Assembly (NCBI GenBank): GCA_963710645.1
Contig: CAVQBD010000002.1
Location: 138,828 to 202,827 of the forward strand
Reading direction: 5' to 3'
DNA from: an uncultured Holophagae bacterium
Lineage (GTDB): Bacteria > Acidobacteriota > Thermoanaerobaculia > Thermoanaerobaculales > Sulfomarinibacteraceae
DNA length: 64,000 bases
Part shown: piece by piece, positions 4-35,657 of the stretch
Position numbering within the stretch: the first letter of the stretch is position 1
How the letters are laid out: each line of letters opens with the position of its first letter
Program-made: the position numbers and the translations under genes
Notes under the pieces: model-generated
The model's database searches: none
Told to the model about the DNA's origin: nothing
The model's input: the letters and a program-made list of their open reading frames with translations, nothing else

Positions 4-4864
<4,861 letters not shown>

Positions 4865-18944: not shown

Positions 18945-21379
18945 TTGTCCACCCCTCCGGGGTCTCCACTGGCTATTACGGATCGCAGCCATCGGTGCCC
19001 CTGGAACCTGCGGTGGTGGATCTGGTGGACGCCTTCTTGTCCGCCAATCCGGGGGGTCGGGAGAGGTTGATTCCACTGTTGCAGTGCGTTCAGGACGAAG
19101 TCGGCCACCTACCCGTCGAGGCTCAGGAGCTGGTGGCAGATCGTCTGGCCATGTCACCGATCCAGGTCGCAGGAGTGGTCAGCTTCTACGATCTGTTCAC
19201 CCTCACGCCGCGGGCACCATTCGAAATCCGGGTCTGCGCGGGGACCGCCTGCCACGTTCAGGGTGGCGAAAGGGTGCTCGATGCGCTCACCGACGCTCTT
19301 GGAGTGACTGCCGGTGGCATCTCGGCAGACGGGTTGTTCAACCTCGAGCGAGGCCACTGCATCGGTGCCTGCGCCCTGGCCCCAGCGGTGATGGTCAACG
19401 GAGTTGTCCACGGGCGAATGACGGCCGGATCGGTGCGGCGGCTGGTGAGTCGGTTGCGTCACTCGGTCAAGGCTGCGGCGGAGCGGCCCGGTTCCATGGG
19501 TGCCGTCCGGTTGAGCCCTATGGGAGGCCTGTGGCGGAGCGCCCGTTGGCTGCCGACCGATGCATCCGGTGATGAAATCGGTGTGCGCACGATCCAGATC
19601 TGTTCAGGAAGCGGTTGCCTCGCCAACGGAGCTTTGGAGGTGGCGGAAGCCCTCAAGGCCTGTCTCCGCCGGCTGCGACGGGATGGTGGCCCGCGAGGTG
19701 CTTCGGTGGATCGGGTCAGGATAGAACTTGGAATCACTGGCTGTCGTGGCTTCTGCGCCGCCGGACCCCTGGTGAAGATCCCTGAAGTCGGTGTCCTGTA
19801 CTGCGGTGTAGGGGTCGACGACGCCGACGAGATCATCCAGAAGACGGTGTTCCAGGGTCACGTCATTCCGCGGCTGATATTTGGCGGCACAACTGGCGAC
19901 GGAAGGTACCGCAGCCAAGACGATATTCCCTTCTTCTCCGGCCAACAGCGACATGTGCTCGGGCTCTGCGGTGAAATCGACCCCGAGCGTATCGAACAAT
20001 ACGAATCTCAGGGTGGTTACCTGGCACTCGAACGGGTTGTCCGGGAATTCCGGCCGGACCAGGTGATCCAGCGGGTGATGGAATCCGGGTTGGTGGGTCG
20101 AGGCGGTTCCGGATTTCCGACCGGACGGAAGTGGCAGTTGGTCGCCGACGCCCCGGACGAGACCAAGGTCGTCATCTGCAATGGTGACGAAGGCGATCCC
20201 GGGGCGTTTATGGACCGCAGCTTGATGGAGGGCGACCCCCATTCGGTGCTGGAGGGAATGGCCATAGCGGGCTATGCGGTGGGCGCCCACATCGGCTACG
20301 TCTACCTGCGCGCCTCCTACGAGATGGCGGTGAGGAGAATGTTGCACGCCGTCGCGCAGGCACGTGAGCGCGGTTTTATCGGGGACGATGTCATGGCCAG
20401 CGGATACCACTTCGATGTCCGGATCGTGCAAGGTGGCGGCGCTTTCGTGTGCGGCGAGGAAACCGCGCTCATAGCCTCCATCGAGGGGCGACGAGCCATG
20501 CCCAGGACCCGTCCGCCACATCCTGCGACCCGCGGCCTGTGGGGACACCCCACGTTGATCAACAACGTCGAGACTCTGGCCAACATCCCGCAGATCTTGA
20601 TGCCGAGAAACCAACGGGGAGCCGGCCGCGCTACGACCAAGACGTTTGCGCTCACCGGTGCTGTTCGCAACGTCGGGCTGGTGGAGGTCACTCTGGGCAC
20701 CTCCCTGCGGGAGATCGTGTTCGGCATAGGTGGCGGACTGGCCGAGGGGCGAACATTCAAGGCGGCATGGATCGGCGGACCCGGAGGTGGGTGTCTCGGA
20801 GAGCCCCAACTGGACACCCCCATCGACTATGACTCCCTGGAGGAACAGGGAGTGGCCATGGGTTCGGGTGGGTTGGTGGTGGTGGACGACCGTACCTGCT
20901 CCGTTCGGCTGGCGCGTTTCATGCTCGCGTTTTGCGTCGAAGAATCGTGTGGCAAGTGTTCGCCCTGCCGAATCGGAACGCGGGTTCTGCTCGGTCTGCT
21001 GACTCGCGTCAGCGAGGGTGAGGGGCGGGCGGGAGACCTGGAGAGAATCGAACGCCTCGGAGAACACGTGCACAGGACATCTCTCTGTGGACTGGGACAG
21101 TCGGCCCCAATGCCGGTTCTGACTGCGCTCCGCCATTTCCGTTCGGAGTTCGAATCCCACCTCAACAGCCGCAGTTGCCCCGCCGGGGAGTGCTACCGGT
21201 TGTTGGATCTGCGTATCGATGCCGAATTGTGCGAGGGCTGTGGAGACTGCGTCGTGGTCTGTCCGGAGCAGGCGATCGTGGGAGAACCCGGTTCGAGCTA
21301 CGCCATCGACCTCGACCGATGCAACCGCTGCGGGCTATGTATCCACTGCTGCCCGTACGATGCTATCGAAACAGTGTAA
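18941..21379 (+). CDS. NuoE-like/NuoF-like fusion flavoprotein with an extra 2Fe-2S domain and a C-terminal 2x[4Fe-4S] ferredoxin domain (HydB/HydC- or Bfu-type)
   Basis: GTG 18941 overlaps the upstream TGA. NuoE motif (VCAGTACHVQG...GHCIGACALAP) and a second thioredoxin-like 2Fe-2S (CSGSGCLANG...GCRGFCAAGP). NuoF motifs GRGGSGFPTGRKW, CNGDEGDPGAFMDR and SCGKCSPCR...LCGLG. Ferredoxin motifs CEGCGDCVVVCP and CNRCGLCIHCCP. Confidence 0.8.
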   Translation: MIVHPSGVSTGYYGSQPSVPLEPAVVDLVDAFLSANPGGRERLIPLLQCVQDEVGHLPVEAQELVADRLAMSPIQVAGVVSFYDLFTLTPRAPFEIRVCAGTACHVQGGERVLDALTDALGVTAGGISADGLFNLERGHCIGACALAPAVMVNGVVHGRMTAGSVRRLVSRLRHSVKAAAERPGSMGAVRLSPMGGLWRSARWLPTDASGDEIGVRTIQICSGSGCLANGALEVAEALKACLRRLRRDGGPRGASVDRVRIELGITGCRGFCAAGPLVKIPEVGVLYCGVGVDDADEIIQKTVFQGHVIPRLIFGGTTGDGRYRSQDDIPFFSGQQRHVLGLCGEIDPERIEQYESQGGYLALERVVREFRPDQVIQRVMESGLVGRGGSGFPTGRKWQLVADAPDETKVVICNGDEGDPGAFMDRSLMEGDPHSVLEGMAIAGYAVGAHIGYVYLRASYEMAVRRMLHAVAQARERGFIGDDVMASGYHFDVRIVQGGGAFVCGEETALIASIEGRRAMPRTRPPHPATRGLWGHPTLINNVETLANIPQILMPRNQRGAGRATTKTFALTGAVRNVGLVEVTLGTSLREIVFGIGGGLAEGRTFKAAWIGGPGGGCLGEPQLDTPIDYDSLEEQGVAMGSGGLVVVDDRTCSVRLARFMLAFCVEESCGKCSPCRIGTRVLLGLLTRVSEGEGRAGDLERIERLGEHVHRTSLCGLGQSAPMPVLTALRHFRSEFESHLNSRSCPAGECYRLLDLRIDAELCEGCGDCVVVCPEQAIVGEPGSSYAIDLDRCNRCGLCIHCCPYDAIETV

Positions 21380-21390
21380 TCTCTGGAGCC

Positions 21391-22806
21391 ATGGCGTCTA
21401 CCAGCGAGACTCCGTTTGCCTATATCTTCGCCTCCGAGCTGCACGGGCGTCTGTTGTGGTTCGCGCGGCTGAGGTGGTTCGCGGTTGCGGTGCTGGCCGT
21501 CGCCTCGGTGGTCGGACCCCGATTCGGGTGGTCCGACGTCTGGCCAAGCCTCGCAATCATCGCGGGGCTCGTGGCAGTGTACAACCTGATCTTCACCAAG
21601 CGGCTCCGGAGTTATCTGCTGTGGGACAGGCCGTACCACGATCTACGAGCCGTAGCGATCGTGCAGATGCTGACCGACCTTGGTGCGCTGCTACTGGTGG
21701 TGCACTTCACAGGTGGCTGCCACAGCCCTGTGTTGCCGTTCGTGGTGTTCCACATGGCCATCGGCACGATCATGATCTCCACCCGGCTGATGTACGTGCT
21801 GGCGATGGTGACCATCATGGGCACGCTGGGATTGTTCGCCCTCGAGGGCTGGGTTCTGGAGCACCATCATCCCATCACGCCTCATACTGACGGCCTGGAG
21901 CTGTCATGCGTGCTCAACGCCGCGGTCATGGTGGTTCTGGTCTTCGGCATGGTCTACCTGACGGACACCGTGACCAGTCGTTTCAAGACCCGAGGCATCC
22001 AGCTCCACAAGACCAGCGAGCAGCTCAGATACCGGAAAGAAGAGCTCCAACAGTTGCTCCGCGAGCGTGAAGGCGTGGAGAGGCGCAAGTCTCACTACAT
22101 GCGGATCTCGGCCCACCAGTTGCGGTCGCCCCTCGGTACCATCAAGACTTCTCTGCAGGTCCTGGTGGACGGCATCGTCGATCCCGCCAGTGACGGTGGA
22201 CGGAGACTCATCGTGGGCGCCTCGGAGCGGGTGGATGATTTGCTGGAGATCGTCAACGACCTGCTGGAGCTGGCCAAGATGCGCGAGGGTCGGTTGCGGG
22301 CGCCCTGGGCTCGCCAGGTCTACATCAACCAGGTCCTGGCCGATATTTTTGACGCCATCGGACCGTTGGCCCAGGAGGGCCGGGTGGAGCTGGTGGCTGA
22401 TGTGGATGGTGTGGCGCTGCTCGACTGGGGGGTTCCGCCCGATCTGGTCTACGTCTTCGAGAACCTCATCGGTAACGCCATCAAGTACTCCCTCGAGGGT
22501 GGCGAGGTCCGGGTCAGATTGCGGGTCGAGGATGGCGTGGCGAAGGTCGAAGTGTCGGATCAGGGCATCGGTATTCCGGAAGAATTCTTGGACGATGTCT
22601 TCTTGGAGTTTGTTCGCGCGCCAAATGCCAAGAAACACGCGGCGGGCGGCACCGGTCTCGGCTTGTCCATTGTGCGCGAGGGTGTGGAGATGCACGGCGG
22701 CACCGTCGAGGTGGCAAGCGAGCCTGGCCGCGGCACCACCTTCACCGTCAAGCTCCCGTTGCATTTCGTTCCACCGGAGGTCGAGGATCGCGTCGATTCC
22801 GAATGA
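21391..22806 (+). CDS. Membrane sensor histidine kinase
   Basis: ATG 21391, inner start of ORF 21175..22806. Multi-TM N-terminus, H-box RISAHQLRSPLGT, N-box ENLIGNAIKYS and G-boxes DQGIGIP and GGTGLGLSIV. Confidence 0.85.
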   Translation: MASTSETPFAYIFASELHGRLLWFARLRWFAVAVLAVASVVGPRFGWSDVWPSLAIIAGLVAVYNLIFTKRLRSYLLWDRPYHDLRAVAIVQMLTDLGALLLVVHFTGGCHSPVLPFVVFHMAIGTIMISTRLMYVLAMVTIMGTLGLFALEGWVLEHHHPITPHTDGLELSCVLNAAVMVVLVFGMVYLTDTVTSRFKTRGIQLHKTSEQLRYRKEELQQLLREREGVERRKSHYMRISAHQLRSPLGTIKTSLQVLVDGIVDPASDGGRRLIVGASERVDDLLEIVNDLLELAKMREGRLRAPWARQVYINQVLADIFDAIGPLAQEGRVELVADVDGVALLDWGVPPDLVYVFENLIGNAIKYSLEGGEVRVRLRVEDGVAKVEVSDQGIGIPEEFLDDVFLEFVRAPNAKKHAAGGTGLGLSIVREGVEMHGGTVEVASEPGRGTTFTVKLPLHFVPPEVEDRVDSE

Positions 22807-22898: not shown

Positions 22899-23588
22899 AT
22901 GGCAGGCACAGGGTGGAGCAGCAGGTGGTGGAAGCCCGCAGCCGGGGTGGCAGGGGTTGCGGTGGGAATATTGCTGGCCTGGCGGTTTGGCGCCTTTGAC
23001 CTGCTTACGGTTGACAACATCGACCGAATGGACCGGTGGTTCGACGTTCTTGGGATCTGGGCGCCGGTGGTCTTCATCCTGCTGTGGGTCGCAGCGGCGG
23101 TCTTCTTCCTTCCGGGGCTTCCCATATCCATCGCCGGGGGCCTGATCTTCGGTGCCGTCTGGGGCACCGTCTACACCACAATCGGCGCCAACCTGGGCGC
23201 GGCCGCAGCTTTTCTCATCGGCCGCTACCTGGCGCGGGACATGGTGGAGGGCCAGATCGAGAACAACGCCTCCCTGGTAAAAATCGACGAAGGCGTGAGG
23301 CGTCACGGCTGGCGCATGCTCATGATCACCCGGCTGGTGCCGGTCTTCCCCTTCAACATTCAGAACTACGTCTACGGTCTGACCGACATCGGACTCGGCA
23401 CCTACGTGTTGGTCAGTCTGGTGTGCATGGTGCCCGGGACCGTTGCCTACAACTTCGCGGCCGGCTCGGTCCGCACCGGGGATCTCGGCATGACCCTCTG
23501 GTATCTCGGAATCGCGGCCGTATTCTTCGTGCTGCTGTCGTTGCTGCCGGGGTGGATCAAGAAGCGGTATGGCGCAGGGGTGGAATAG
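22899..23588 (+). CDS. TVP38/TMEM64 (DedA-related, SNARE-associated) membrane protein
   Basis: Motifs FLPGLPISIAGGLIFG, GANLGAAAAFLIGRYLARD and RLVPVFPFNIQNYVYGLT. Confidence 0.75.
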   Translation: MAGTGWSSRWWKPAAGVAGVAVGILLAWRFGAFDLLTVDNIDRMDRWFDVLGIWAPVVFILLWVAAAVFFLPGLPISIAGGLIFGAVWGTVYTTIGANLGAAAAFLIGRYLARDMVEGQIENNASLVKIDEGVRRHGWRMLMITRLVPVFPFNIQNYVYGLTDIGLGTYVLVSLVCMVPGTVAYNFAAGSVRTGDLGMTLWYLGIAAVFFVLLSLLPGWIKKRYGAGVE

Positions 23589-23595
23589 GGTTCAA

Positions 23596-23782
23596 GTTGA
23601 AAGTCGAAAGTCGAAAGTCCCACCGGTCCAGGAGGCCAACAACTCGGGACTCGGGACTCGGGACTGAGGACTCGGGACTCGTCCCCCGCCCTCCCTCCCG
23701 GGACGACAACAGGGCGCGATGGGCGGGCGTACCACTCCGGGCACCTTCAAGTTGAAAGTTGAACGTTAAACGTTGAACGTTC
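23596..23782. repeat. Composite of heptamer arrays: GTYGAAA x3 (23596-23616), ACTCGGG x6 (23642-23683), AAMGTTG x5 (23748-23782)
   Basis: Each array is followed by CCC.CCCTCCCTCCC-GGACGACAACAGGGCGCG-ATGGGCGGGCGT. This makes a roughly 150-nt super-unit present twice in tandem (about 23590-23745 and 23746-23835). Confidence 0.85.
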
Positions 23783-23805
23783 CCACCCTCCCTCCCAGGA
23801 CGACA

Positions 23806-23966
23806 ACAGGGCGCGTATGGCGGGCGTGCCGTCTCTGACGATTTTGGGTTGAGGTCGAACAGTCTGCGTGTCGCGACGAGTCCCGAACAGTGTCAGGGGT
23901 GGCAACCTCGGGGAGCGCGGTTGGGAGATGGGCGCGTCGAAGCCGGTGAATCGAACCGTACGCCCG
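23806..23966 (+). repeat. Dispersed roughly 160-nt repeat, copy B
   Basis: See copy A at 11336-11497. The ORF-track translations of both loci share ...CQGW.PRGARLGDGR...ESNRT.... Confidence 0.8.
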
Positions 23967-24081
23967 TGCCCGGGTTCCGGCGCCAGCGGCAGCGTTCAGC
24001 GACAGTAACCAGCGACAGCAACCAGGCAACAGCGATCCGGGGGAGCGGCCGAACGGCTCACAGGGCGGGCGGCGGATCGAA

Positions 24082-24183
24082 CATCCAGGATCCAGCATCG
24101 AACATCCGGCATCCGGCATCCGGGTGGGCGGTGGATCTTGAATCTTGAATCTTGGGTCTTGCATCTTGGGTCTTGCATCTGGT
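24082..24183. repeat. Heptamer arrays, CATCCGG x6 (24082-24123) and ATCTTGR/GTCTTGC x7 (24135-24183)
   Basis: The arrays are separated by GGGTGGGCGGTGG. The second array belongs to the same unit family as 5090-5142. Confidence 0.9.
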
Positions 24184-24441
24184 CGGGTGGGTGGGGGCCC
24201 GGCGTTACGCGCTGGGAACGGCAAGAACGCCGGTGTCACAGCCAAATCCCAGGGTTCCGGGCGCCCTTTTGCGAAAGGCACAAGCGACAGCCGGCCCCAA
24301 GCCTTTCACCAACCGCGATTTCCGACGGTGGAGAGGGTTGGTGGGTGATCCGGGGAGACTCGAAATCATACCGTTTTCCTAAGGAATAGGAATTGCTCAA
24401 TTGTCCGGGGATGAGGTGTGCCTGTGGGCGATGGATCGAAT

Positions 24442-24471: not shown

Positions 24472-24529
24472 ATCGACTATCTCAATATTCCAGAAGAGAA
24501 TTCGGTATGATGGGCGAGGAGTGCTACTG

Positions 24530-25465
24530 ATGACTATTATTACTTATATGATCGCTTACTGTGGCATCGCAATCTTCCTGGTGGCCTGCGTGGCCCGGTT
24601 CAAGATGTGGTCGAAGATGCCCATGCACCTTCGCTGGGAACTCTACCCGGTGGCCCATGAGGGTGGCGGCAGAGCCGCGTACGGCGGTTCCTACCTCGAG
24701 GAAAGTGATTGGTGGACCAAGCCTCGCAACGTCTCGCTCGTGGGCGAGGCCAAGGTGATGGTGCCTGAAATCCTCTTTCTCGAGGCTCTCAAGGAGCACA
24801 ACAACCAGCTCTGGAAGCGCTCATTCCCGTTCCATTTCGGGCTCTACCTGGTGGCAGCGTGCACCATCCTGATGATGATCAACGGCATTCTGAGCGCCCT
24901 GCTGCCGGGGCTCATGGGTGGAATCATCGGGACGCTCTTCTCCTGGATGATCCCGATCACCGGCTACGCCGGGTTGATCATGGGATTGGTGGGTGCGGTG
25001 GGTCTGATCCAGCGGCGATTCGTCAAACCGCTGCGCGACTACTCGGCGCCCGTCGACGTGCTCAACCTCGTGTTCTTCGTGGTGGCCTTTGGTACGGCCC
25101 TGGTGACAGCACTTTGGGTCGACCACGGCTTCGAGCGGGTCACCGCGTTTGTCGGAAATCTGGTGACATTCCACGTCGCCCCGCTCCCGGGAACAGGGCC
25201 GGAGGTCCTGATGCCCATGATCTCGGCCATCCTGCTCGCTCTTCTGGTGGCCTACATTCCACTCACACACATGTCCCACTTCGTGGGCAAGTATTTCGCA
25301 TATCATTCCATCCGCTGGGCAGATGAACCCAATCTCCGCGGCGGAAAGCAAGAGAAGGTCATTCACGAGTTGTTGGACCAGCCCGTGTCATGGTCGGCCC
25401 CCCATATTCAGGGTGACGGCAAGAAGACGTGGTTGGATGTCGCGACGGAGGATCAGAAGAAATGA
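24530..25465 (+). CDS. dsrM: DsrM-like membrane b-type cytochrome (NarI/HdrE family)
   Basis: ATG 24530 lies 8 nt after a GAGGAG RBS. It is a polytopic membrane protein with the NarI-like N-terminus ...RFKMWSKMPMHLRWELYP. An ATGA overlap couples it translationally to the DsrK-like gene. Confidence 0.75.
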   Translation: MTIITYMIAYCGIAIFLVACVARFKMWSKMPMHLRWELYPVAHEGGGRAAYGGSYLEESDWWTKPRNVSLVGEAKVMVPEILFLEALKEHNNQLWKRSFPFHFGLYLVAACTILMMINGILSALLPGLMGGIIGTLFSWMIPITGYAGLIMGLVGAVGLIQRRFVKPLRDYSAPVDVLNLVFFVVAFGTALVTALWVDHGFERVTAFVGNLVTFHVAPLPGTGPEVLMPMISAILLALLVAYIPLTHMSHFVGKYFAYHSIRWADEPNLRGGKQEKVIHELLDQPVSWSAPHIQGDGKKTWLDVATEDQKK

Positions 25466-27066
25466 AGCAACCTGACAGCGTCAAGGATATTTCGAAGCAT
25501 CCGGGTCAGCCGCTGGCCCAGGTCAAGCCCATGGACCTGGTGCCGCTGCCACCCCCATTCGACAAGCTGGACGAGGAACCGGAGTTCGCTCAGTTGTCGG
25601 AAAAAGCTCGGCAGCAGTACGTTGTGCTTGACGACACCATCGCGGTGAACATCAAGAACCCCGAGACCAAGGAGGAGGAGGATCGCCTCGTCCAGAGCTT
25701 CTTGACCGGCATGAAGAAGTTGTTCACGAAGGAGGACAACTGGACGTTCCTACAGCCGCTCGAGATGTCCATGGAGCATTGCGCCAAGTGCATGACCTGC
25801 TCCGAGGCCTGCCACATCTTCGAGGAGTCGAATGAGAACGAGCTCTATCGGCCCACCTACCGGTCGGAGATCATTCGGCGGATCTACTTCAAGTACATCA
25901 AGAAGGCTTCACCCCTGATCCACGGCGACATCGATCTCAATTGGACCACCGTGGGCCGTCTCATCGAATTGAGCTATCGCTGCAATCTCTGCCGGCGCTG
26001 CGCCCAGACCTGCCCGATCGGTGTGGACAACGCGTTGTTGTCACGGGAGATCCGTAAGATCGCGTCCCAGGAGATGGGAATCGTTCCGAAGGAACTCCAC
26101 GACAATGGATCAGTACTGCAGCTCGAGGTTGGGTCTTCCACAGGGATGACCCCGATGATCGTCAAGGACAACATCGAGTTCATCGACGAGGACACGGCCG
26201 AGCGTACCGGCATCGTGTACGAGACCCCATGGGATGTTGAGGGAGCCGACATTCTGCTCATCCACAACGCGGGAGAAATCATGGCGTGGCCGGAGAACCC
26301 GGGCGCCTTTGGCACCATCTTTGATGCCGCCGGTCTGAGCTGGACCATGTCGTCGGAGATCGTGGCCTATGACGGCATCAATTACGGGGTTTGGTACGAC
26401 GACATGATGTTTGCCAAGGTGGCCGTCAAGCATGCTCAGGCGGCGGCCAAGCTCGGCGTCAAGAAGATCGTGCTCGGCGAGTGTGGCCACGCGCACAAGG
26501 CGCTTACCGTGATCGCCGACAGGGTGCTCACTGGAGACCTCAACATTCCCCGCGAAAGTTCCATGGTGACCCTGCTGGATATCGTCCGGTCGGGGAAGGT
26601 CAAGTTCGACAAGAGCCGGAACGACTTCCCGGTGACCCTTCACGATCCCTGCAATCTCGTTCGACTGATGGGTGTTGTCTCGCCGCAGCGGGAGATCATC
26701 GAGGCGGTGGTGCCCGAGGGCCGGTTCCGGGAGATGGCGCCGCACGGAGTCGAGAACTACTGCTGCGGAGGCGGATCGGGCTTTGCCATCATGTCCGGTC
26801 ACAATTTCGCCGATTGGCGTCACTACATGACCGGTCGCAGGAAGTTTCGCCAGATCCTCGACGCCTTCCAGGGCGAGGAAATGGACATGGACCATCCCAA
26901 GTATCTCTGCGCCCCGTGTTCCAACTGCAAGGGCCAGATCCGCGACATCATCACCTACTACGACGCATGGGAGAAAGCCGGTATCTACTACGGTGGCCTG
27001 GTGGAGTTGATGGTCAACGCCATGGTGGATGCCCAGCCGGGCTTCATCGATTGGGAGTGGCACTAG
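25462..27066 (+). CDS. dsrK: DsrK-like Fe-S/CCG heterodisulfide-reductase-type subunit (HdrD family)
   Basis: Ferredoxin motifs CAKCMTCSEACH and CNLCRRCAQTCP. CCG-type motifs GECGHAHK, HDPCNLVR, YCCGGGSGF and CAPCSNCKGQ. Confidence 0.8.
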   Translation: MKQPDSVKDISKHPGQPLAQVKPMDLVPLPPPFDKLDEEPEFAQLSEKARQQYVVLDDTIAVNIKNPETKEEEDRLVQSFLTGMKKLFTKEDNWTFLQPLEMSMEHCAKCMTCSEACHIFEESNENELYRPTYRSEIIRRIYFKYIKKASPLIHGDIDLNWTTVGRLIELSYRCNLCRRCAQTCPIGVDNALLSREIRKIASQEMGIVPKELHDNGSVLQLEVGSSTGMTPMIVKDNIEFIDEDTAERTGIVYETPWDVEGADILLIHNAGEIMAWPENPGAFGTIFDAAGLSWTMSSEIVAYDGINYGVWYDDMMFAKVAVKHAQAAAKLGVKKIVLGECGHAHKALTVIADRVLTGDLNIPRESSMVTLLDIVRSGKVKFDKSRNDFPVTLHDPCNLVRLMGVVSPQREIIEAVVPEGRFREMAPHGVENYCCGGGSGFAIMSGHNFADWRHYMTGRRKFRQILDAFQGEEMDMDHPKYLCAPCSNCKGQIRDIITYYDAWEKAGIYYGGLVELMVNAMVDAQPGFIDWEWH

Positions 27067-27070
27067 GTCA

Positions 27071-27126
27071 GTGACTCGTGAATAGTAAATAGTGAATAGT
27101 GAATAGTGAATAGTGAGTCGAGAATA
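27071..27126. repeat. Heptamer tandem array, GTGAATA family, 8 units
   Basis: It starts 5 nt after the dsrK TAG stop and belongs to the same unit family as 4875-4916, 22 kb away. Confidence 0.95.
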
Positions 27127-27154
27127 GTCGGAAGCTGACAGCATCAAATGATCA

Positions 27155-27236
27155 GAGACCGCCCACCCGCGTGGGCGGTTTTTTCAATGGCCCCGCCCTG
27201 GCCGATCCAAGAACGAAGAACGAAGAACGAAGATCC
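27155..27236 (+). repeat. 75-82-nt direct repeat, copy 1 (terminator hairpin, CAATGGCCCCGCCCTGGCCGATCC, then AAGAACG array)
   Basis: Apart from the AAGAACG unit count, I saw no difference from 27501-27575. This copy has three full AAGAACG units; copy 2 has two. Confidence 0.9.
27159..27184 (+). terminator. Rho-independent terminator downstream of dsrK (copy 1)
   Basis: CCGCCCAC-ccgc-GTGGGCGG gives an 8-bp GC stem with a 4-nt loop, followed by TTTTTT. Confidence 0.8.
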
Positions 27237-27263
27237 CCCCCACCCGCCCGGGTGGGGGTTTTT
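27237..27263 (+). terminator. Second hairpin and T-run terminator
   Basis: CCCCCACCC-gccc-GGGTGGGGG followed by TTTTT. Confidence 0.65.
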
Positions 27264-27500
27264 GTCGTCCCGTCCAGAGTGGGGGAGTGATCGGAACGAG
27301 ACCGCAACCCCGTTCCCGCTCCCGTTCCCGTTCCCGGGCACGGGGGCAGGCAGTACGGAGTGCAGTAGGGAGCAGGGGGCGGTCCACCTCTGAGCCCGTT
27401 GTCGTTACCGTTACCGAATACTCGGACCGGGGTGTCTGGGGGCCGTGAGCCGTGAGCTGTGCGCAGGCAGTCGGCAGGAACCCATAGAACCCAATCGATC

Positions 27501-27575
27501 GAGACCGCCCACCCGCGTGGGCGGTTTTTTCAATGGCCCCGCCCTGGCCGATCCAAGAACGAAGAACGAAGATCC
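27501..27575 (+). repeat. 75-82-nt direct repeat, copy 2
   Basis: See copy 1 at 27155-27236. Confidence 0.9.
27505..27530 (+). terminator. Rho-independent terminator (copy 2; identical hairpin to 27159-27184)
   Basis: Same CCGCCCACCCGCGTGGGCGG hairpin and T6, inside the second copy of a 75-82-nt direct repeat. Confidence 0.7.
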
Positions 27576-27813
27576 CCCATCCGCTCGAGGAGCGCGTTCG
27601 GAGAAAGTCGTTCTTCGGAGGTGCCTGGACTCCTGACGTTGTGGAGCAGCCGTCTCGGCTGCAATTCTTGCCCCAATTGAATGCATAAATGCGGGCCGGA
27701 GGATTGCTCCACAGTGACTCTCCGGTCTTGTACGTGTCTCGTATCTGCGCGGGCGGGTGGGCGGGGGTCTCATAGCTTATAGCGCAGGGCTTATAGCCTG
27801 AACGGCCGGGTGG

Positions 27814-27848: not shown

Positions 27849-28017
27849 GGATGGCCCGCGGCCAGCGGTTCATGGCTTGCGACCGGAGCAAACTGCGATC
27901 CCCGACGGTCGTCTTCCATTGCAACTTGCGACGGTGCCGCTCGTGGATTGCCGGGAAGTCAGCCCGAAATATTGATTTTAAGAGACTTGTGCATAATTTC
28001 ACGAAATCTAGGAAAAT

Positions 28018-28033
28018 GGCACGCCGGTTGCTG
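28018..28033 (+). promoter_or_regulatory. Sigma-54 (-24/-12) promoter candidate for the beta-propeller and hmc-like operon
   Basis: TGGCACGCCGGTTGCT matches the consensus at every conserved position (GG 28019-28020, GC 28031-28032). It lies about 60 nt upstream of ATG 28092, with an AT-rich tract just upstream. Confidence 0.7.
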
Positions 28034-28091: not shown

Positions 28092-29354
28092 ATGGTTGAC
28101 CTGGAGGGCTGGAATTGGGAGGAGGGACGGAGGGCCGTCGCCGACGTTTCCCGACTGCGGGAGCAGTTTGCAGATGTCCATGAGTTTGCGGTCAGCGGCG
28201 ACGGAGAGGTCATCGCCGCGCCGGTGGTCGACGAGTCGGGTGGCTTTGGTGTCTGGGTCAACGGCGCACTCTGGGAGGGAGAGTTCGAGAAAGCGTGGCA
28301 TCTCGTTTTCACTCCGGATCAGCGGTTGACGGCGTTGGTCCGCGTCGACGATGAGTGGACTCTGGCGGTGGACGGAGAGCTCTGGGATCAACGCTGGGAA
28401 TTTGCCTGGAACCCGACCTTCAGCCGCGATGGTCGGGTGATTGCGTTGCAGATCAAGGACAACATGGAGTACTCGGTTGCCGTCAACGGAACGCCGTGGG
28501 ACTGCCGCTTTCCCTCGAGCCGCGGTCTGGCGGTGAGCGACGACGGCAACACCGTGGCCGCGCTGGTTCAGGTGGTTCCGTTGGCAGAGGCGGACATCGT
28601 CGGCTTCATGGATGGAACCTGGTCCATCGCGGTCAACGGCGAGCCGTGGCAACAGAAATTCATCAACGTCTACGGCCTCGCGATCAGCGAAGACGGCTCG
28701 GGCGTTGCCGCCGAGGTCCGGCTTGACATCTGCAAGTACACGCTGGCTGAGAACTCACGGCCCTGGGAGAGCCGCTTCGGGTGCGTGTGGGAGCCCGCCT
28801 ATCGAAACGGCAGCCGGAATCTCCTGGCGCCGGTGCGGGTCGAGGGCTCGTGGACAATCGCGGAGAACGGGAGCCCCATCTGGTCGAGTCGCTTCATGCA
28901 GCTGTGGAACCTGCGGCTGAGTCAGGACGGAAGGCGGCTCGCCGCGGTGGCCGCGGGGGCTTTTGGCTCGTGGACGGTGGTGGTCGACGATCGGCCGTGG
29001 CCGGTCTCGTTCAACGATTTGATCCTGCCGCCGGTCTTCTCGCCAGACGGCCGAAGGGTCGCCGCAGGAGTCCGCCATGACGGCGTGTGGAGCGTGGCCG
29101 TCGACGGTACCCGCTGGCAGGAGACCTACGACATGGTCTGGGATCCGGTCTTTGCGCCCGACGGTGCGCGGGTGGTGGCGAAGGTGGAGCGCGACAGGAA
29201 GTTTGCCGTCGCGGTCGACGGCGAGGTCCGCGGCCCGTGGTTCGAGGCGATGTGGGAACCGGTGGTGAGCCCCGATGGGCAGCGGCTGCTGGTACGGGCC
29301 GTCGAGGACGGTGTCTACACCCGCCGGGTCGTTTCGTTCGACGGTCTCGGCTGA
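28092..29354 (+). CDS. Cytoplasmic repeat protein, about 10 PD40/WG-like beta-propeller blades
   Basis: ATG 28092 follows a GAAAGGGAG RBS; no signal peptide. The roughly 40-aa unit FSPDGrrvAa.v..dg.WsvAVdG..W...fd.vWdPv recurs about 10 times (for example FSRDGRVIALQ, VSDDGNTVAAL, FSPDGRRVAAG, FAPDGARVVAK, VSPDGQRLLVR). Confidence 0.7.
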   Translation: MVDLEGWNWEEGRRAVADVSRLREQFADVHEFAVSGDGEVIAAPVVDESGGFGVWVNGALWEGEFEKAWHLVFTPDQRLTALVRVDDEWTLAVDGELWDQRWEFAWNPTFSRDGRVIALQIKDNMEYSVAVNGTPWDCRFPSSRGLAVSDDGNTVAALVQVVPLAEADIVGFMDGTWSIAVNGEPWQQKFINVYGLAISEDGSGVAAEVRLDICKYTLAENSRPWESRFGCVWEPAYRNGSRNLLAPVRVEGSWTIAENGSPIWSSRFMQLWNLRLSQDGRRLAAVAAGAFGSWTVVVDDRPWPVSFNDLILPPVFSPDGRRVAAGVRHDGVWSVAVDGTRWQETYDMVWDPVFAPDGARVVAKVERDRKFAVAVDGEVRGPWFEAMWEPVVSPDGQRLLVRAVEDGVYTRRVVSFDGLG

Positions 29355-29369
29355 TCGAGAGGAGGGAGC

Positions 29370-30017
29370 ATGTTCGACTTCATCAGCGGTCCGCTCGTTT
29401 GGATCGCCTTCGCCGGCCTCTTTGGAGGGCTCGCCTACCGGCTGGTCACGATGGCTGCACTGGCGCGGCGGGAGCGGGTGGTCTACCCGACGCTGGACGC
29501 CAAGTACGGCACCCGCTCACTGCTCCATTGGCTGATCCCCTTCGCGGGAAGAAAGACTCGTCTGCACCCTGCCTACACCTTGGTGTCATACGCCTTTCAC
29601 GTCTGTCTGCTGGTGACGCCGTTGTTTGCCGCCGGGCACGTCCTGCTCTTCAAGCGGTCATGGGGATTCGGCTGGTGGACCCTGCCCGACGCGGTCGGCG
29701 ACGGGATGACCCTCGTGGTGGTCTTCGCCTGCCTGTTTTTTATGATCCGGCGCCTGCTGCAGCCTGAGGTTCGCAACGTCAGCGACGCCTCAGACTTCCT
29801 CCTCGCGGGCGTGGTCCTGGTTCCATTCGCGACGGGGTTCCTCGCCCACCGGCAGTGGCTCTCCTACGAACCGATGCTCATCATCCACGGTCTTTCCGGC
29901 GTGCTGGCCCTGTTGCTGATCCCGTGGACGCGTCTGGTGCACCTGCTGTGGTTCACCTTCACCCGCGCTTTCATGGGCTCCGAGTTCGGGGCCGTCCGTC
30001 ACGCGAGGGATTGGTAA
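29370..30017 (+). CDS. hmcE: HmcE-like membrane b-type cytochrome (NarI/HdrE/DsrM family)
   Basis: 215 aa and polytopic, with His residues inside TM helices (AFHVCLL...AAGHVLL...IIHGLSG...LVHLLW). It sits directly upstream of an HdrD-like subunit. RBS GAGGAGGG. Confidence 0.65.
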   Translation: MFDFISGPLVWIAFAGLFGGLAYRLVTMAALARRERVVYPTLDAKYGTRSLLHWLIPFAGRKTRLHPAYTLVSYAFHVCLLVTPLFAAGHVLLFKRSWGFGWWTLPDAVGDGMTLVVVFACLFFMIRRLLQPEVRNVSDASDFLLAGVVLVPFATGFLAHRQWLSYEPMLIIHGLSGVLALLLIPWTRLVHLLWFTFTRAFMGSEFGAVRHARDW

Positions 30018-30059
30018 TGAACCGCCACCATCAACCGATACCGACTGGAGCACGGCAGC

Positions 30060-31379
30060 ATGGCTGATCTGCAGGACATCCAGGTCATGGATCCCGGCGT
30101 TGACGACAATATCGCCAAACTGACGCCGGAGCGTATCGAGACCACTATCAACAGGGTGCTGACCGACGAGTGCGGCGCGCGGCTGCGGGTCTATCTCGAC
30201 ACGTGTGTCCACTGCGGCCTGTGTGCCGAGGCGTGCCAGAGCTACGTCTCCCGCAACGGCGACCCGGACTACGCGCCGGTGGCCAAGGTCAAGGACACGT
30301 TGTGGGAAATGGTCAAGCGCAAGGGTCGCGTGGACGGCGAATTCCTCCACAACGCGGCCCGAATCGCCTTCATTGACTGCGGGGCGTGCCGCCGCTGCAG
30401 CATGTACTGCCCATTTGGGATCGACATCGCCTATCTGATCATGACCGTGCGTCGGATCCTCAACCTGCTCGGGGTGGTTCCCCAGTACCTTCAAGACACC
30501 ACCAACAGCCACGCCGCCACCATGAACCAGATGTGGGTCCAGCAGGATGACTGGATCGACACCCTGATGTGGCAGGAGGAGGACGCCCAGGAGGAGCTGG
30601 CGGGCACCAGGATCCCGCTCGACAAGGAGGGCGCCGACATCATGTACTCGGTGATCGGTCCCGAACCCAAGATCCTCGCCCAGCTGATCGCCAACATGGC
30701 GATCATCTTCAAGGTGGCCGGCGCCGACTGGACCATGCCGTCCACCGACGGCTGGGACAACTCGAACATGGCCATGTACTCGGGCGACTTCGAAACCATG
30801 GGACGGGTCGAGCGGCTGCACTGGGAACGTGCCATGCAGCTCAAGGTCAAACGGGTGGTGATGGGCGAGTGCGGCCACGCCTACCGCGGGGCGGTTTACG
30901 ACGGACCGAGGTGGCTTGGTTGGACCAAGCCACCCATTCCCATGGTGCACGCCGTCGAGTACTACTACGAGATCATCAAGAGCGGTCGGCTGAAGATCGC
31001 CCGAAAGATCGAAGAGCCGGTCACGGTGCAGGATCCCTGCAACATCGTCCGCGGCCGCGGGCTTCACGACAAACTGAGGTACGTCGTCAACGCGATCTGC
31101 GAGGACTTCCGGGACATGGATCCCCGTTACGAGCACAACTACTGCTGTCAGGCCGGAGGAGGGCTGATCAATTGCGGCCCACCGTGGAAGGTGTCTCGGA
31201 TGAAGAGCAACAAGATCAAGGCGGAACAGATCGTCGGCACCGGGGCCCACACGGTCATCACCCCGTGCCACAACTGCCACAGCGGCATCGAAGACATCAT
31301 CGGTTACTACAAGCTCGGCGCCCATGTGTCGTTCATCAGCGAGCTCCTGGTCAAGACCATCGAGCTTCCGGAAGCCTGA
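30060..31379 (+). CDS. hmcF: HmcF-like Fe-S/CCG protein (HdrD/DsrK family)
   Basis: Motifs CVHCGLCAEACQ, CGACRRCSMYCP, GECGHAYRG, QDPCNIVR, YCCQAGGG and TPCHNCHSG. Confidence 0.7.
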   Translation: MADLQDIQVMDPGVDDNIAKLTPERIETTINRVLTDECGARLRVYLDTCVHCGLCAEACQSYVSRNGDPDYAPVAKVKDTLWEMVKRKGRVDGEFLHNAARIAFIDCGACRRCSMYCPFGIDIAYLIMTVRRILNLLGVVPQYLQDTTNSHAATMNQMWVQQDDWIDTLMWQEEDAQEELAGTRIPLDKEGADIMYSVIGPEPKILAQLIANMAIIFKVAGADWTMPSTDGWDNSNMAMYSGDFETMGRVERLHWERAMQLKVKRVVMGECGHAYRGAVYDGPRWLGWTKPPIPMVHAVEYYYEIIKSGRLKIARKIEEPVTVQDPCNIVRGRGLHDKLRYVVNAICEDFRDMDPRYEHNYCCQAGGGLINCGPPWKVSRMKSNKIKAEQIVGTGAHTVITPCHNCHSGIEDIIGYYKLGAHVSFISELLVKTIELPEA

Positions 31380-31382
31380 GGG

Positions 31383-32903
31383 GTGGTGGGAATGTCCGCA
31401 CGCAATTGGTATCTGGCGGTTTGGTGTGTTGTGCTGTTGCTCGCGGCCACGGTTGGGGTCTCGGCCGGGGAGGTCGGGGCTTTGCGGGCCATCGGCCCGT
31501 CGATCATCGTCATGGACAACATTGGCGCCTTCGACGTCATGGAGCGGCCATCGGTGGAGTTCGACCATGCGGCACACGCCGATGCGATGAAGTCTGAGGG
31601 CTGCACGGCGTGCCATCGGGTCGAGAACGAACGGCTGATGCCCAAACTGTCCGGGATTCCCAACGTCGGCGACCGAGATGAGTTGCTCGACGGCTTTCAT
31701 GGGAGGTGTATCGGTTGCCACTCCGAGCGCGCCGATGCGGCCCAGTCCAGCGGTCCGGTGACCTGCGGCGAGTGCCACGTCCGTCGGCCGGACGGTGTCT
31801 CGACTCGGGCGGCCATGTCCTTCGATTACTCGCTCCACGCACGCCACGCGCAGGCCTACCCCGAGCGGTGCGAGGAATGCCATCACGTCTACGACGAGCA
31901 GCAGCAGAAGTTGGTTTACGTCAAGGGCGAAGAAGATGCGTGTCGCTCGTGTCACGGAGAGTCGGACGTGAATGATACGCCCTCGCTCGAAAATGCCTCC
32001 CACCGAGGCTGCATCTCGTGCCACCTGAATCGGCAGGCGGCCGAGCTCGAGGCCGGCCCGGTGCGGTGCGTCGGGTGCCATGATCTCGATCACCAGCTTG
32101 CGATCAAGACCCTCGACGCGGCCGAGATTCCCCGCCTGCTGCGAGGCCAGCCGGACAGCGTCTGGATCGTCGACGACGAGGCTCGGACCAGGGTCGTGGC
32201 CTTTGATCACAAGGGACACGAGTCGGTCACCACCTCGTGCTCCACCTGCCATCACCAGACGATGAAGCCCTGTGGTGAGTGCCACACGTTGGTTGGCTCA
32301 ACGGAGGGTGGTGGGGTCACCATGGCGGTGGCTTATCACCTCGATGGCTCCGAACACAGCTGTGTGGGGTGCCATACGCTCGAAACTCGCGAGCAGGAGT
32401 GCTCCGGCTGCCACGCCCAGCCCTCGGTGGCACCGGCCGAAAGTACTTGCACGGTGTGTCATGCGGGTCCGGTCGCTGGACCCGAGGTGGCCGAGATGCC
32501 GGTGCCGGTTGCTCAACAATCGGAAATGGCGGCTCTTCCCCAGATCTCGGAATCCTACCCGGAGACGGTGGAGATCGCCGTGCTGGTGGACCGATACCAG
32601 TCCTCCAAGCTGCCCCACGCCAAGATTGTGGCCCGGCTCGACGCAGCGGTACGGGCCAGCGATCTGGCCGGTCGATTCCACCAGAATGTGGAGACCTTGT
32701 GCGCGGGCTGTCACCACCACAGTCCGGCGGGGATCCGGCCGCCGCCGTGTCGCGCGTGCCACGCCGAGGCTGCCGCCACCCGGGACATGCCCGGACTCAA
32801 GGTTGCCTACCACCGGCAGTGCATGGGCTGCCATGCCGAGATGGGGATCAAGGCTCAGAGCTGTACGGATTGCCACGCAGAGAGGGAGGGCGAAGAGTCA
32901 TGA
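31383..32903 (+). CDS. hmcA: Periplasmic 16-heme cytochrome c (HmcA-like)
   Basis: Signal peptide, and 16 CXXCH motifs counted in the translation: CTACH, CIGCH, CGECH, CEECH, CRSCH, CISCH, CVGCH, CSTCH, CGECH, CVGCH, CSGCH, CTVCH, CAGCH, CRACH, CMGCH, CTDCH. Confidence 0.85.
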   Translation: MVGMSARNWYLAVWCVVLLLAATVGVSAGEVGALRAIGPSIIVMDNIGAFDVMERPSVEFDHAAHADAMKSEGCTACHRVENERLMPKLSGIPNVGDRDELLDGFHGRCIGCHSERADAAQSSGPVTCGECHVRRPDGVSTRAAMSFDYSLHARHAQAYPERCEECHHVYDEQQQKLVYVKGEEDACRSCHGESDVNDTPSLENASHRGCISCHLNRQAAELEAGPVRCVGCHDLDHQLAIKTLDAAEIPRLLRGQPDSVWIVDDEARTRVVAFDHKGHESVTTSCSTCHHQTMKPCGECHTLVGSTEGGGVTMAVAYHLDGSEHSCVGCHTLETREQECSGCHAQPSVAPAESTCTVCHAGPVAGPEVAEMPVPVAQQSEMAALPQISESYPETVEIAVLVDRYQSSKLPHAKIVARLDAAVRASDLAGRFHQNVETLCAGCHHHSPAGIRPPPCRACHAEAAATRDMPGLKVAYHRQCMGCHAEMGIKAQSCTDCHAEREGEES

Positions 32904-33937
32904 GCATCACACGCCGGTCCATGATCGGAGGCCTGGTTGGTGGGGCGGCCGCCATGGCGGCCGAGTCCGCCGATGCCGGCTCCCATAAGCATTTCGAGGG
33001 CTATCCGGGCCGCTACGGGCTCCTCCACGACACCACCCTGTGTGTGGGCTGCCGGTCCTGCGAGATGGCCTGTGGCGAGGTCAACGATCTGCCCGCCCCA
33101 GAGGCTCCCATTGGTGACCAGCGTGTCTTTGAGGACACGCGGCGGACCACTGCCACCCATCTGACGGTCGTCAACCGCTATGTTGAACGAAGCGGCAATC
33201 AGCCGGAGGTGTTCCGCAAGCTCCAGTGCATGCACTGCAACGAGCCGTGCTGCGCCACCGTGTGCCCGGTTGGAGCATTCACAAAAACCCCCGAGGGACC
33301 GGTGCTCTATGACGCCGAGGTCTGCATGGGTTGCCGCTACTGCATCATGGCCTGCCCCTACAACGCCTTGGCCTATGAGTATGACAATCCGCTGACGCCA
33401 AGGGTCATGCGCTGCACCATGTGCTATCAGCGGATCGTGGAGGGCCAGGTTCCGGGTTGTGCCGAAGCCTGTCCAACAGGCGCCATCACCTTCGGCCGGC
33501 GCGACGAACTCATTAAAGTGGCCAGAGAGAGGATCCGCAAGGAACCCGGCCGCTACATCGACCACATCTTCGGTGAGAACGAGTTCGGCGGCACGAGCTG
33601 GCTGCTGCTGGCCGGCGTGCCCTTCAGTCAGCTCGATCTGCACGAGGGTCTGACCTATGAGCCCCTGCCGGCCATCGCGACCAGCTATCTCAGCGTCGTG
33701 CCACTGGTGATCACGATCTACCCGGGCCTGCTCCTCGGTCTGCACGCCTTCAGCAAACGCCAGGAGGCGGTGGCCCGCAAAGAGCGGGATGAGGCGGTGG
33801 CCGAAGCCCTGAAAAAGGCCGACGACGACGCGAAACAGAAGCTCACCAAGGCCGCCGAGAAGGCGAAGAAGGACCAGCAACGGGCGGTTGACATGGCGGT
33901 TAAAAAGGCGCTCGAGGAGCACGGGGGTGGAGCATGA
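32900..33937 (+). CDS. hmcB: HmcB-like Tat-exported 4x[4Fe-4S] protein (DsrO/PsrB/NrfC family) with a C-terminal TM anchor
   Basis: ATG 32900, with an ATGA overlap to hmcA. Twin-arginine leader MSITRRSMIGGLVGG. Four Cys clusters (CVGCRSCEMAC, CMHCNEPCCATVCP, CMGCRYCIMACP, CTMCYQR...CAEACP) and a late hydrophobic helix. Confidence 0.8.
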   Translation: MSITRRSMIGGLVGGAAAMAAESADAGSHKHFEGYPGRYGLLHDTTLCVGCRSCEMACGEVNDLPAPEAPIGDQRVFEDTRRTTATHLTVVNRYVERSGNQPEVFRKLQCMHCNEPCCATVCPVGAFTKTPEGPVLYDAEVCMGCRYCIMACPYNALAYEYDNPLTPRVMRCTMCYQRIVEGQVPGCAEACPTGAITFGRRDELIKVARERIRKEPGRYIDHIFGENEFGGTSWLLLAGVPFSQLDLHEGLTYEPLPAIATSYLSVVPLVITIYPGLLLGLHAFSKRQEAVARKERDEAVAEALKKADDDAKQKLTKAAEKAKKDQQRAVDMAVKKALEEHGGGA

Positions 33938-35291: not shown

Positions 35292-35657
35292 ATGGGTCAC
35301 ACGGTTCTTGTGGTGGACGACGAGCCGGATGTCAGGACATTTCTGATGGCCGTGCTCAAAAAGAGGGGATACGAGACCTTGTCCGCCTCCGATGGCCGGG
35401 AGGCTTTCGAGGTCTTGCAGCGTGAGAAACCGGACTTGGTCATCCTGGACCTCCAAATGCCCAATCAGACCGGGACTGACTTTTTCCGCCGACTGACCAA
35501 GGACAAGGAACTCAGTCAGACGCCGGTGATCGTCGTCAGTGGACTTGCCGGACGCCACCTGGCCTTCAAGGAGCCGGTGGCTGTCTTTGATAAACCGATC
35601 GACCCCGACGAGTTCGGCGAAATGGTCGACAAAACCCTCGGCGTGGACGAGGGGTGA
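35292..35657 (+). CDS. Single-domain CheY-like response regulator
   Basis: VLVVDDEPDVR...DLVILDLQMPNQTG...VIVVSG...DKPIDPDEF. Confidence 0.9.
   Translation: MGHTVLVVDDEPDVRTFLMAVLKKRGYETLSASDGREAFEVLQREKPDLVILDLQMPNQTGTDFFRRLTKDKELSQTPVIVVSGLAGRHLAFKEPVAVFDKPIDPDEFGEMVDKTLGVDEG

Follow-up and report, generated by a model that had tools for sequence, protein, structure and literature searches.

A DsrMK-like gene pair lies in a 64-kb stretch of DNA (64,000 nucleotides, hereafter the window) from an uncultured Holophagae bacterium of the Sulfomarinibacteraceae (Acidobacteriota; GenBank assembly GCA_963710645.1, contig CAVQBD010000002.1, positions 138,828 to 202,827). It encodes a DsrM-like protein, M' (24521/24530-25465), and a DsrK-like protein, K' (25462-27066). 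The pair is best explained as an 'alternative DsrMK' that this acidobacterial lineage carries as an additional copy, with the canonical dsrT-dsrMKJOP genes expected about 6-7 kb beyond the window, an explanation that we regard as probable. A DsrMK-like pair without dsrJOP, when met in a short window or a fragmented metagenome-assembled genome (MAG), is easily misread as a 'minimal' Dsr system. The best genome matches to the window, across which G+C content is 58-66%, are Acidobacteriota MAGs labelled as Holophagae, Thermoanaerobaculia or Ca. Sulfomarinibacteraceae, and their DsrK-like protein is 81-90% identical to K'.

Family membership and features of the M'K' pair

Judged by sequence, M'K' is an alternative DsrMK (dsrM2K2 type) and not the DsrMK of DsrMKJOP. 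The family has already been named in the literature. For instance, DiSCo distinguishes an 'alternative DsrMK type' besides DsrMKJOP (PMC8477390), while dsrM2/dsrK2 copies were found upstream of dsrAB in peat Acidobacteria and described as "not uncommon in SRM", that is, in sulfate-reducing microorganisms (Hausmann et al. 2018, PMC6018796). A basal DsrMK-only clade made up of archaea, Clostridia and extra deltaproteobacterial copies has also been reported (Neukirchen et al. 2023, PMC10504309).

A K' scan of species-representative genomes yielded 80 loci, spread over Acidobacteriota, Planctomycetota, Fibrobacteraceae, Gemmatimonadota, Myxococcota, Zixibacteria, Ignavibacteria and Syntrophaceae/Smithella, with K' identities of 60-90%. 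The M' gene is located directly 5' of the K' gene in every locus that has upstream DNA (75/75). Among 50%-identity representatives, a further search brought up Archaeoglobus fulgidus AAB90694/O29707, where the gene order is M (308 aa), K (521 aa) and K (538 aa), adjoining a divergent M-K pair (L161, AE000782, 486553-504118). K' is 57% identical to the 538-aa protein (K538) over its full length, and M' is 42% identical to the 308-aa protein (M308), the HLRWELYPVxHE motif included. In the same archaeal locus, the first K (K521) has GESGH in place of GECGH, while the second keeps the cysteine.

Homologs of K538 with 65-72% identity occur in Pyrobaculum neutrophilum, Ca. Methanodesulfokora, Calderihabitans maritimus, a Bacillota MAG and Syntrophales. 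K' groups with A. fulgidus K538/K521 and the Pyrobaculum, Ca. Methanodesulfokora, Calderihabitans and Bacillota MAG proteins at about 60% identity and with 92% bootstrap in neighbour-joining (NJ) trees, and GECGH, CCG and CAPCSNC are common to K' and these archaeal and Bacillota relatives. The alternative DsrMK is thus conserved at about 60% identity across domains, and an earlier sequence-only reading of the window, which had likened the pair to the DsrMK-only arrangement of Gram-positive and archaeal sulfate reducers, was right at the level of the family.

Comparison with the canonical proteins gave the complementary result. K' is about 27-30% identical to canonical DsrK, TmcB and two other HdrD-like families, from which it is roughly equidistant; averaged over the canonical DsrK proteins, identity is 28%. 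In the bootstrapped NJ trees, which are based on about 450 columns and limited sampling, the K' clade was recovered at 96% and the canonical DsrK clade at 100%, while K' was placed as sister to canonical DsrK at 0%. Curated NCBIfam models of the canonical system (DsrM NF038037, DsrK NF045796, as well as NF038038, NF045797 and NF045798) separate the two types as well. K' scores 321 bits as DsrK and the K'-type protein of locus L070 scores 342, both under the equivalog cut-off of 400, which carries the caveat that one Bacillota member of the K' clade bears the NCBI name 'DsrK'. M' has no match to cytob_DsrM (NF038037, cut-off 300) at E<=0.01, and neither does the M'-type protein of L070. Canonical DsrM proteins, in contrast, score 450 (L070) to 466 bits (L084), and canonical DsrK proteins score 745 (L070) and 740 bits (L030). 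The remaining canonical subunits of L070 also lie above their cut-offs (DsrJ 160 bits, cut-off 100; DsrO 310, cut-off 200; DsrP 475, cut-off 350).

K' itself (534 aa, plus strand; Pfam Fer4_8 and CCG) is predicted to be a cytoplasmic subunit. It contains two CxxCxxCxxxC ferredoxin motifs (C107-117 and C174-184), a complete five-Cys CCG motif (C397, C434, C435, C486 and C489) and GECGH at 339-343. These are all of the features that define a DsrK/HdrD-like catalytic subunit, namely the CXnCCGXnCXXC five-Cys motif, two [4Fe-4S] motifs and the GECGH cysteine (PMC10861901). The sequence-only reading had placed the pair correctly (24530-27066, with DsrK at 25462-27066), and had made its assignment hinge on the catalytic CCG cysteines, all of which are present in K'. 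M' is a protein of 311-314 aa (24521..25465 on the plus strand, with ATG 24530 as the likely start), with about five transmembrane helices (TM), and belongs to the NarI family of membrane cytochrome b subunits. A Pfam search with M' was without match, while profile-profile comparison (hhalign) gave a probability of 98.7% against canonical DsrM and of 93.6% against TmcC. A sequence search of the PDB returned no solved relative of DsrM or DsrK, and only a weak match of the CCG domain to 9ojn_A.

Association with other dsr genes supports the same assignment. Core dsr genes (dsrA, dsrC or canonical dsrK/J) are found within 10 kb in 33 of 93 loci of the K' family, with M'K' directly adjoining dsrC or dsrA in many of them and (yeiH-)dsrAB in several relatives. 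Given this proximity, the clade grouping and the adjacency of M' and K', the pair is read as a dsr-linked member of the alternative type.

The DNA on either side of the pair also bears on how it is organised. A VTT/DedA-family membrane protein gene (22899-23588, +) is kept just 5' of dsrM'K' in Acidobacteriota relatives, in the slot that dsrT takes before canonical dsrM. Between them (23590-24330) lies about 900 bp of repeat-rich, non-coding DNA with short direct and tandem repeats, such as the 49-nt copies at 23685 and 23782; a 171-aa minus-strand open reading frame in this stretch looks spurious. The spacer that follows dsrK' (27056-27590, +) is likewise non-coding. Its repeats comprise five tandem units of 14 nt (AGTGAATAGTGAAT-like) and a perfect direct repeat of 72 nt (27155-27226 and 27501-27572, 346 bp apart). 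Either copy of the latter carries a GC hairpin with a T-run behind it, and another terminator lies at 27237-27258. An 81-aa open reading frame at 27148-27393 was considered as dsrJ or dsrC and rejected as spurious, as it matches no family and overlies the terminator hairpins and repeats. The lack of dsrJ, dsrO or dsrP next to the pair, noticed before from the sequence alone, is therefore real within the window, where terminator DNA follows K'.

Canonical dsrMKJOP in relatives of the window

No DsrJ, DsrO, DsrP, DsrC, DsrT or canonical DsrM is encoded within the 64 kb. However, the window closes inside a dsr cluster: dsrA (62174-63391, +; TIGR02064, 576 bits) is followed by the 5' part of dsrB (63417-64000, +), of which about the first 193 codons are retained before the end of the window (tblastn, 65% identity over residues 3-193). 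Searching metagenomes with the DsrA of the window gave 80 loci. Among those with a DsrA at least 60% identical and at least 9.5 kb of downstream DNA, canonical dsrM is present downstream in 28 of 30, at 5.9-11.6 kb after the dsrA start. In all 12 closest dsrA relatives (71-86% identical, again with at least 9.5 kb downstream), the distance from the dsrA start to canonical dsrM is 7.9-8.9 kb. From this spacing, canonical dsrM would be expected near 70-71 kb, or 6-7 kb past base 64000.

The gene order in the closest relatives is dsrAB-dsrL-dsrN-dsrC-dsrT-dsrMKJ…, with dsrK/J seen where the contig reaches them. For example, locus L084 shares a window-like hmcABC-HEAT…yeiH-dsrA synteny and continues with dsrB, a DsrL-like protein, DsrN, a DVU0298-family protein, a TPR protein, DsrC, DsrT (RsbRD_N) and DsrM (466 bits). 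Another locus, L101, holds recA-trx-VTT-M'K'-dsrAB-…-dsrC-dsrMKJ on one contig.

Both types of DsrMK also occur side by side more widely. Syntrophaceae loci have the order dsrA-dsrB-dsrN-dsrC-M'K'-dsrM-dsrK-dsrJ-dsrO-dsrP, while Acidobacteriota bin48 (L030) and Fibrobacteraceae loci have dsrMKJOP-cysG-M'K'. Of the 80 genome loci, at least 14 have M'K' and the canonical type within 10 kb of each other. The canonical subunits in these loci pass the NCBIfam cut-offs; the M'K' members do not. In addition, DsrMKJOP, DsrL and DsrD have been reported for Ca. Sulfomarinibacter (Flieder et al. 2021, PMC8528874).

M'K' is thus very probably an additional copy and not the sole DsrMK of the organism, and the DsrMK-only look of the window is most probably an artefact of its edge. 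Since close relatives carry a full dsrMKJOP a few kb past the equivalent of the window end, the arrangement would be an ordinary one. The suggestion that a diderm organism here runs on DsrMK alone does not agree with the presence of canonical dsrM downstream of dsrA in all 12 closest relatives. What the window would add is one more diderm lineage that keeps both the archaeal/Gram-positive type of DsrMK and DsrMKJOP.

Proposed mechanism and heme ligands of M'

By analogy with HdrED and DsrMK, to which the proteins are homologous (PMC10861901), M'K' would act as a two-subunit, HdrED-like membrane oxidoreductase. The cytochrome b M' may exchange electrons with the menaquinone pool, and the two [4Fe-4S] (cubane) clusters of K' would pass them to a noncubane cluster held by the five-Cys CCG motif. 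This cluster, together with the GECGH cysteine, could then reduce a DsrC trisulfide or disulfide. In the reverse direction, the enzyme could oxidise DsrC-bound sulfur.

One part of this picture is complicated by the histidines of M'. Across 88 M' homologs (L001-L161), seven His residues are invariant: H36, H46, H105, H250, H253, H262 and H295, some of them within the HLRWELYPVxHE motif. A NarI-type diheme protein is recognised by four heme-ligating His: TM2 and TM5 each supply a pair, with a spacing of about 10 residues in TM2 and about 18 in TM5. In M', H105 and H253 alone match such ligands, H105 taking the place of the first His in TM2 of canonical DsrM and H253 that of the second in TM5. 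None of the 88 M' sequences has the remaining NarI-type pair, which is present in the 41 canonical DsrM and 24 TmcC sequences compared; these proteins retain the full set of four ligands. In NarI, the pair equivalent to H105 and H253 ligates the proximal heme. With one bis-His pair missing, the view of M' as a diheme cytochrome b like DsrM may be wrong for the alternative family. Loss of the distal heme ligands would bear on energy conservation in DsrMK-only organisms. This difference and the chimeric tmc/hmc operon described below are modest leads for further work.

Neighbouring modules, rival readings and known systems

M'K' is one of several HdrD-like modules in the window, and it is well known for one sulfate or sulfite reducer to have several of them. 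Scanning by motif and profile gave exactly three CCG-type proteins (14263-16416, 25462-27066 and 30060-31379), the same three that the sequence-only reading had picked out. Its statement that each carries paired CCG motifs is correct for the GltD::HdrD fusion at 14263-16416, which has two full motifs, and incorrect for the other two: in K' and in the 30060-31379 protein, a single motif is accompanied by a GECGH remnant, and the motif of the latter protein reads CCQ instead of CCG. A single CCG motif with GECGH has likewise been described for each of DsrK, TmcB and HmcF (Barbosa et al. 2024, PMC10861901). The three parallel routes to DsrC that had been proposed from these modules are a plausible extrapolation from the literature on HdrD-like proteins, and with DsrMKJOP and DsrL expected in addition, there would be more than three.

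Downstream of the spacer, an operon at 28092-35121 forms a tmcD-tmcC-tmcB-hmcA-hmcB-hmcC chimera, all on the plus strand. It starts with a tmcD homolog (28092-29354; NCBIfam TmcD 493 bits, cut-off 440) and a tmcC/hmcE-type NarI-like cytochrome b that keeps all four NarI-type His (29370-30017; TmcC 267 bits, cut-off 240; HmcE 174, cut-off 275). The HdrD-like protein at 30060-31379, with its single CCG-type motif, had been taken for HmcF but scores better as TmcB (706 bits, cut-off 735) than as HmcF (401, cut-off 750). These are followed by hmcA, a periplasmic cytochrome c with 16 CxxCH motifs and a signal peptide (31383-32903; 468 bits, cut-off 400), hmcB, a Tat-exported Fe-S subunit homologous to DsrO (32900-33937; HmcB 407 bits, cut-off 420), and hmcC, an NrfD-type membrane subunit homologous to DsrP (33934-35121; Pfam NrfD; HmcC 532 bits, cut-off 550). 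The architecture is of the Hmc type, in which a cytochrome with 16 hemes is combined with an NrfCD-like pair, a cytochrome b and a CCG protein. The cytoplasm-facing subunits score as TmcC and TmcB. HmcD and the tetraheme TmcA were not found. The possibility that HmcB and HmcC are displaced DsrO and DsrP was ruled out by their scores, as HmcB reaches only 95 bits as DsrO and HmcC has no DsrP match. The chimera is kept in Acidobacteriota relatives and in Gemmatimonadota (L044, L069), and no description of this arrangement was found in the literature searched.

A perfect sigma-54 promoter consensus (TGGCAC-N5-TTGC) occurs only twice in the window, at 28017-28032 (+), about 60 nt before the tmcD ATG, and at 60391-60406 before yeiH-dsrAB. 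Together with the terminators after dsrK', the first of these indicates that M'K' and tmcDCB-hmcABC are separate transcription units. Several sigma-54 activators are also encoded in the window (3476-4864, 54976-57720).

Upstream of M'K', also on the plus strand, the GltD-like flavoprotein fused to an HdrD-like domain (14263-16416; Pfam CCG x2, Fer4_20 and NAD_binding_8; NF045663 502 bits, cut-off 530) is followed by a NuoG-like Fe-S/molybdopterin-fold subunit (16413-18944) and a NuoE-NuoF fusion with a C-terminal 2x[4Fe-4S] domain, an NADH/FMN module whose start codon is uncertain (18860-21379). The NuoG-like subunit lacks the Cys/Sec-His active-site motif of formate dehydrogenases, by which this candidate function was ruled out, and in the simplest reading the module would be NADH-linked. 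A histidine kinase gene (21175-22806) lies between this module and the VTT/DedA gene. Both this module and tmcDCB-hmcABC are separate, lineage-variable modules that likewise end in HdrD-like catalytic subunits: tmcB is found downstream of M'K' in 17 of 56 loci, and Nuo/GltD-HdrD genes upstream in 10 of 55.

Receiver-domain proteins are another recurrent neighbour. A stand-alone receiver-domain gene, most similar to that at 35292-35657 in the window, is located directly 3' of alternative dsrK in 10 of 80 loci, and in Gemmatimonadota a HEAT-repeat protein and a response regulator follow dsrK (receiver-domain or HEAT associations were noted at L042, L046, L048, L053-L059, L062 and L065, and at L044, L045 and L069). 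In the window, the corresponding trio of response regulator, HEAT protein and response regulator (35292-36900) comes after hmcC, which would fit an insertion of the tmc/hmc operon between dsrK' and the trio. An HdrD-like family with two [4Fe-4S] motifs and CCG is moreover fused to a C-terminal receiver domain (L044:3541-5301; also L035, L053, L068, L069, L073 and L075), and in Gemmatimonadota, Syntrophaceae and other groups the fusion gene precedes alternative dsrMK by a few kb. A further Hmc-like variant adjoins alternative dsrMK or lies upstream of dsrAB in six loci (L008, L009, L013, L050, L143 and L155). Its HdrD-like protein, again a different one, is 29-33% identical to DsrK and is accompanied by a TmcC-like protein, and its HmcB-like and HmcC-like proteins have identities of about 40% and about 45%, respectively.

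The rest of the window includes RecA (11511-12695) and, between 36984 and 59109, regulators, TauE, SulP-STAS, a CLC channel and an insertion sequence element. Three putative sulfur-anion transporters are encoded near the dsr genes: a TauE/SafE sulfite exporter (38968-40062, -), an unusually long SulP permease of 1201 aa with several STAS matches (41809-45414, -) and a YeiH-family protein (60363-62105, +), whose gene is directly 5' of dsrA, a pairing that is kept in relatives. The insertion sequence is of the IS3 type (57890-59109; an HTH_Tnp_1 and an rve integrase open reading frame) and falls in the 25-kb stretch between the hmc operon and yeiH-dsrAB that is missing in several relatives. The Gram-negative features that had been listed from the sequence are real, comprising Skp/OmpH (7483-8208), the Tat motif of HmcB (TRRSMIGG) and the 16-CxxCH cytochrome with its signal peptide.

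Several points weigh against the explanation of M'K' as an additional, alternative DsrMK. The family trees are NJ trees on some 450 columns from limited sampling, and the pair stands 35 kb from dsrA within the window instead of adjoining it. That this particular genome has dsrMKJOP is something we infer from its relatives. DsrC is proposed as the substrate of M'K' from homology and synteny, and no biochemically characterised K'-type member was found in the literature consulted. Lastly, M' is without one NarI-type bis-His pair that canonical DsrM and TmcC have kept. A bolder reading, which we hold to be doubtful, would take this last point as a mark of the whole family. The alternative DsrMK, which includes M'K' and the enzyme on which archaeal and Gram-positive sulfite reducers rely alone, would then be mechanistically unlike the DsrMK of DsrMKJOP. 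M' would keep only the cytoplasm-side (proximal) NarI-type heme site, with five further invariant His on the predicted cytoplasmic face, and might thus bind one heme, or hold a second one by a new kind of ligation, and couple quinol oxidation to DsrC reduction without a periplasm-side quinol site. In diderms, it would offer a non-redundant route beside DsrMKJOP, and this Acidobacteriota clade would have brought it together with the Tmc/Hmc genes and the NADH-linked double-CCG enzyme in a 'DsrC-recycling' island of about 21 kb.

Other explanations of the pair differ in what they ask of its surroundings. Taken within the window, the organism could be a diderm with DsrMK only, in which Hmc and the NADH-linked HdrD module compensate for absent DsrJOP: dsrJOP, dsrT and canonical dsrM are missing from 64 kb, M'K' is orthologous to the DsrMK of DsrMK-only lineages, and HmcB and HmcC, as homologs of DsrO and DsrP, could in principle supply the periplasmic module. 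Yet the window ends about 600 bp into dsrB, short of the 7.9-8.9 kb at which canonical dsrM follows the dsrA start in all 12 closest relatives, same-class relatives have been published with DsrMKJOP (PMC8528874), and the two DsrMK types lie together within 10 kb in at least 14 of 80 loci; a DsrMK-only diderm is therefore very unlikely. Alternatively, M'K' may not act on DsrC at all and could instead be a quinone-linked partner of GltD::HdrD-NuoEFG or of Tmc/Hmc, or another disulfide or polysulfide reductase. Several Acidobacteriota relatives (L001-L013, L041) keep the block GltD::HdrD-NuoG-NuoEF-histidine kinase-M'K'-tmcDCB-hmcABC, and at greater distance L102 and L105 likewise have NuoG/NuoEF homologs ahead of M'K'. 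We nevertheless consider it unlikely, as these neighbours are variable (upstream in 10/55, downstream in 17/56) where core dsr genes lie within 10 kb in 33/93 loci, and many loci have M'K' abutting dsrC or dsrA. The terminators and the sigma-54 promoter also part M'K' from tmcD, and in DsrMK-only archaea and Bacillota the M'K' type is the only candidate DsrC reductase (PMC10504309).

A chiefly regulatory role, in which M'K' would sense the quinone or thiol/disulfide pool and report it to receiver-domain proteins, would fit the receiver-domain gene directly after K' in 10 of 80 loci, the HEAT protein and response regulator that follow K' in Gemmatimonadota and hmcC here, and the HdrD-like-receiver fusion upstream of M'K' in several phyla. 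It is highly improbable, however, for an enzyme that has retained its full catalytic cofactor set at 60-90% identity across phyla and domains and that is the sole DsrMK of some sulfite reducers, and the receiver-domain link is confined to a minority of loci. M'K' as an additional alternative DsrMK thus remains the preferred explanation, and the modules of the window can be compared with known systems on this basis.

The module at 14263-21379 resembles NADH-linked HdrD/HdrABC systems (FlxABCD-HdrABC; HydABC/Bfu-like NuoEFG) in that NuoE-NuoF and a NuoG-like subunit stand beside a flavoprotein ending in a double-CCG HdrD domain. It differs in its domain fusion (GltD::HdrD) and in having no HdrA, and any bifurcation, like a DsrC acceptor, is hypothetical for it. 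The 28092-35121 operon encodes homologs of TmcD, TmcC/HmcE, TmcB/HmcF, HmcA (16 hemes), HmcB and HmcC, as do the Hmc (HmcABCDEF) and Tmc (TmcABCD) systems of Desulfovibrio between them. However, its gene order is D-C-B-A-B-C, its E/F-type subunits score as Tmc and its A/B/C subunits as Hmc, and several subunits fall just under the curated cut-offs.

M'K' itself is similar to HdrED of methanogens, which also combines a membrane cytochrome b with a cytoplasmic CCG Fe-S subunit and links a quinone-like carrier to a disulfide, though HdrD has two CCG motifs where K' has one and the substrate differs. Its M and K subunits are homologous to those of canonical DsrMKJOP, which has been characterised in A. 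fulgidus, Desulfovibrio and Allochromatium, and both systems have a single CCG motif with GECGH, a pair of ferredoxin-type clusters and, presumably, DsrC as substrate. In contrast to that system, identities are only about 27% for K' and 22-25% for M', with curated cut-offs not reached or no match at all. M'K' is also without dsrJOP and dsrT in the window, having instead a terminator region after K' and a VTT-domain gene upstream. The last residue of the CCG motif is Cys in K' and Asp in the canonical DsrK compared, and M' lacks the second NarI-type His pair of canonical DsrM. The closest counterparts are the other alternative DsrMKs, namely dsrM2K2 of peatland Acidobacteria and of other sulfate/sulfite reducers, M308-K521-K538 of A. 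fulgidus and the DsrMK of Pyrobaculum and Bacillota. These form the same two-gene unit, and a location near dsrAB/dsrC is common to M'K' and its relatives. Compared with these, the window pair is set 35 kb from dsrA, not directly upstream, and the tmc/hmc operon comes next, while A. fulgidus has K in tandem, with Ser replacing Cys in the GECGH of the first copy.

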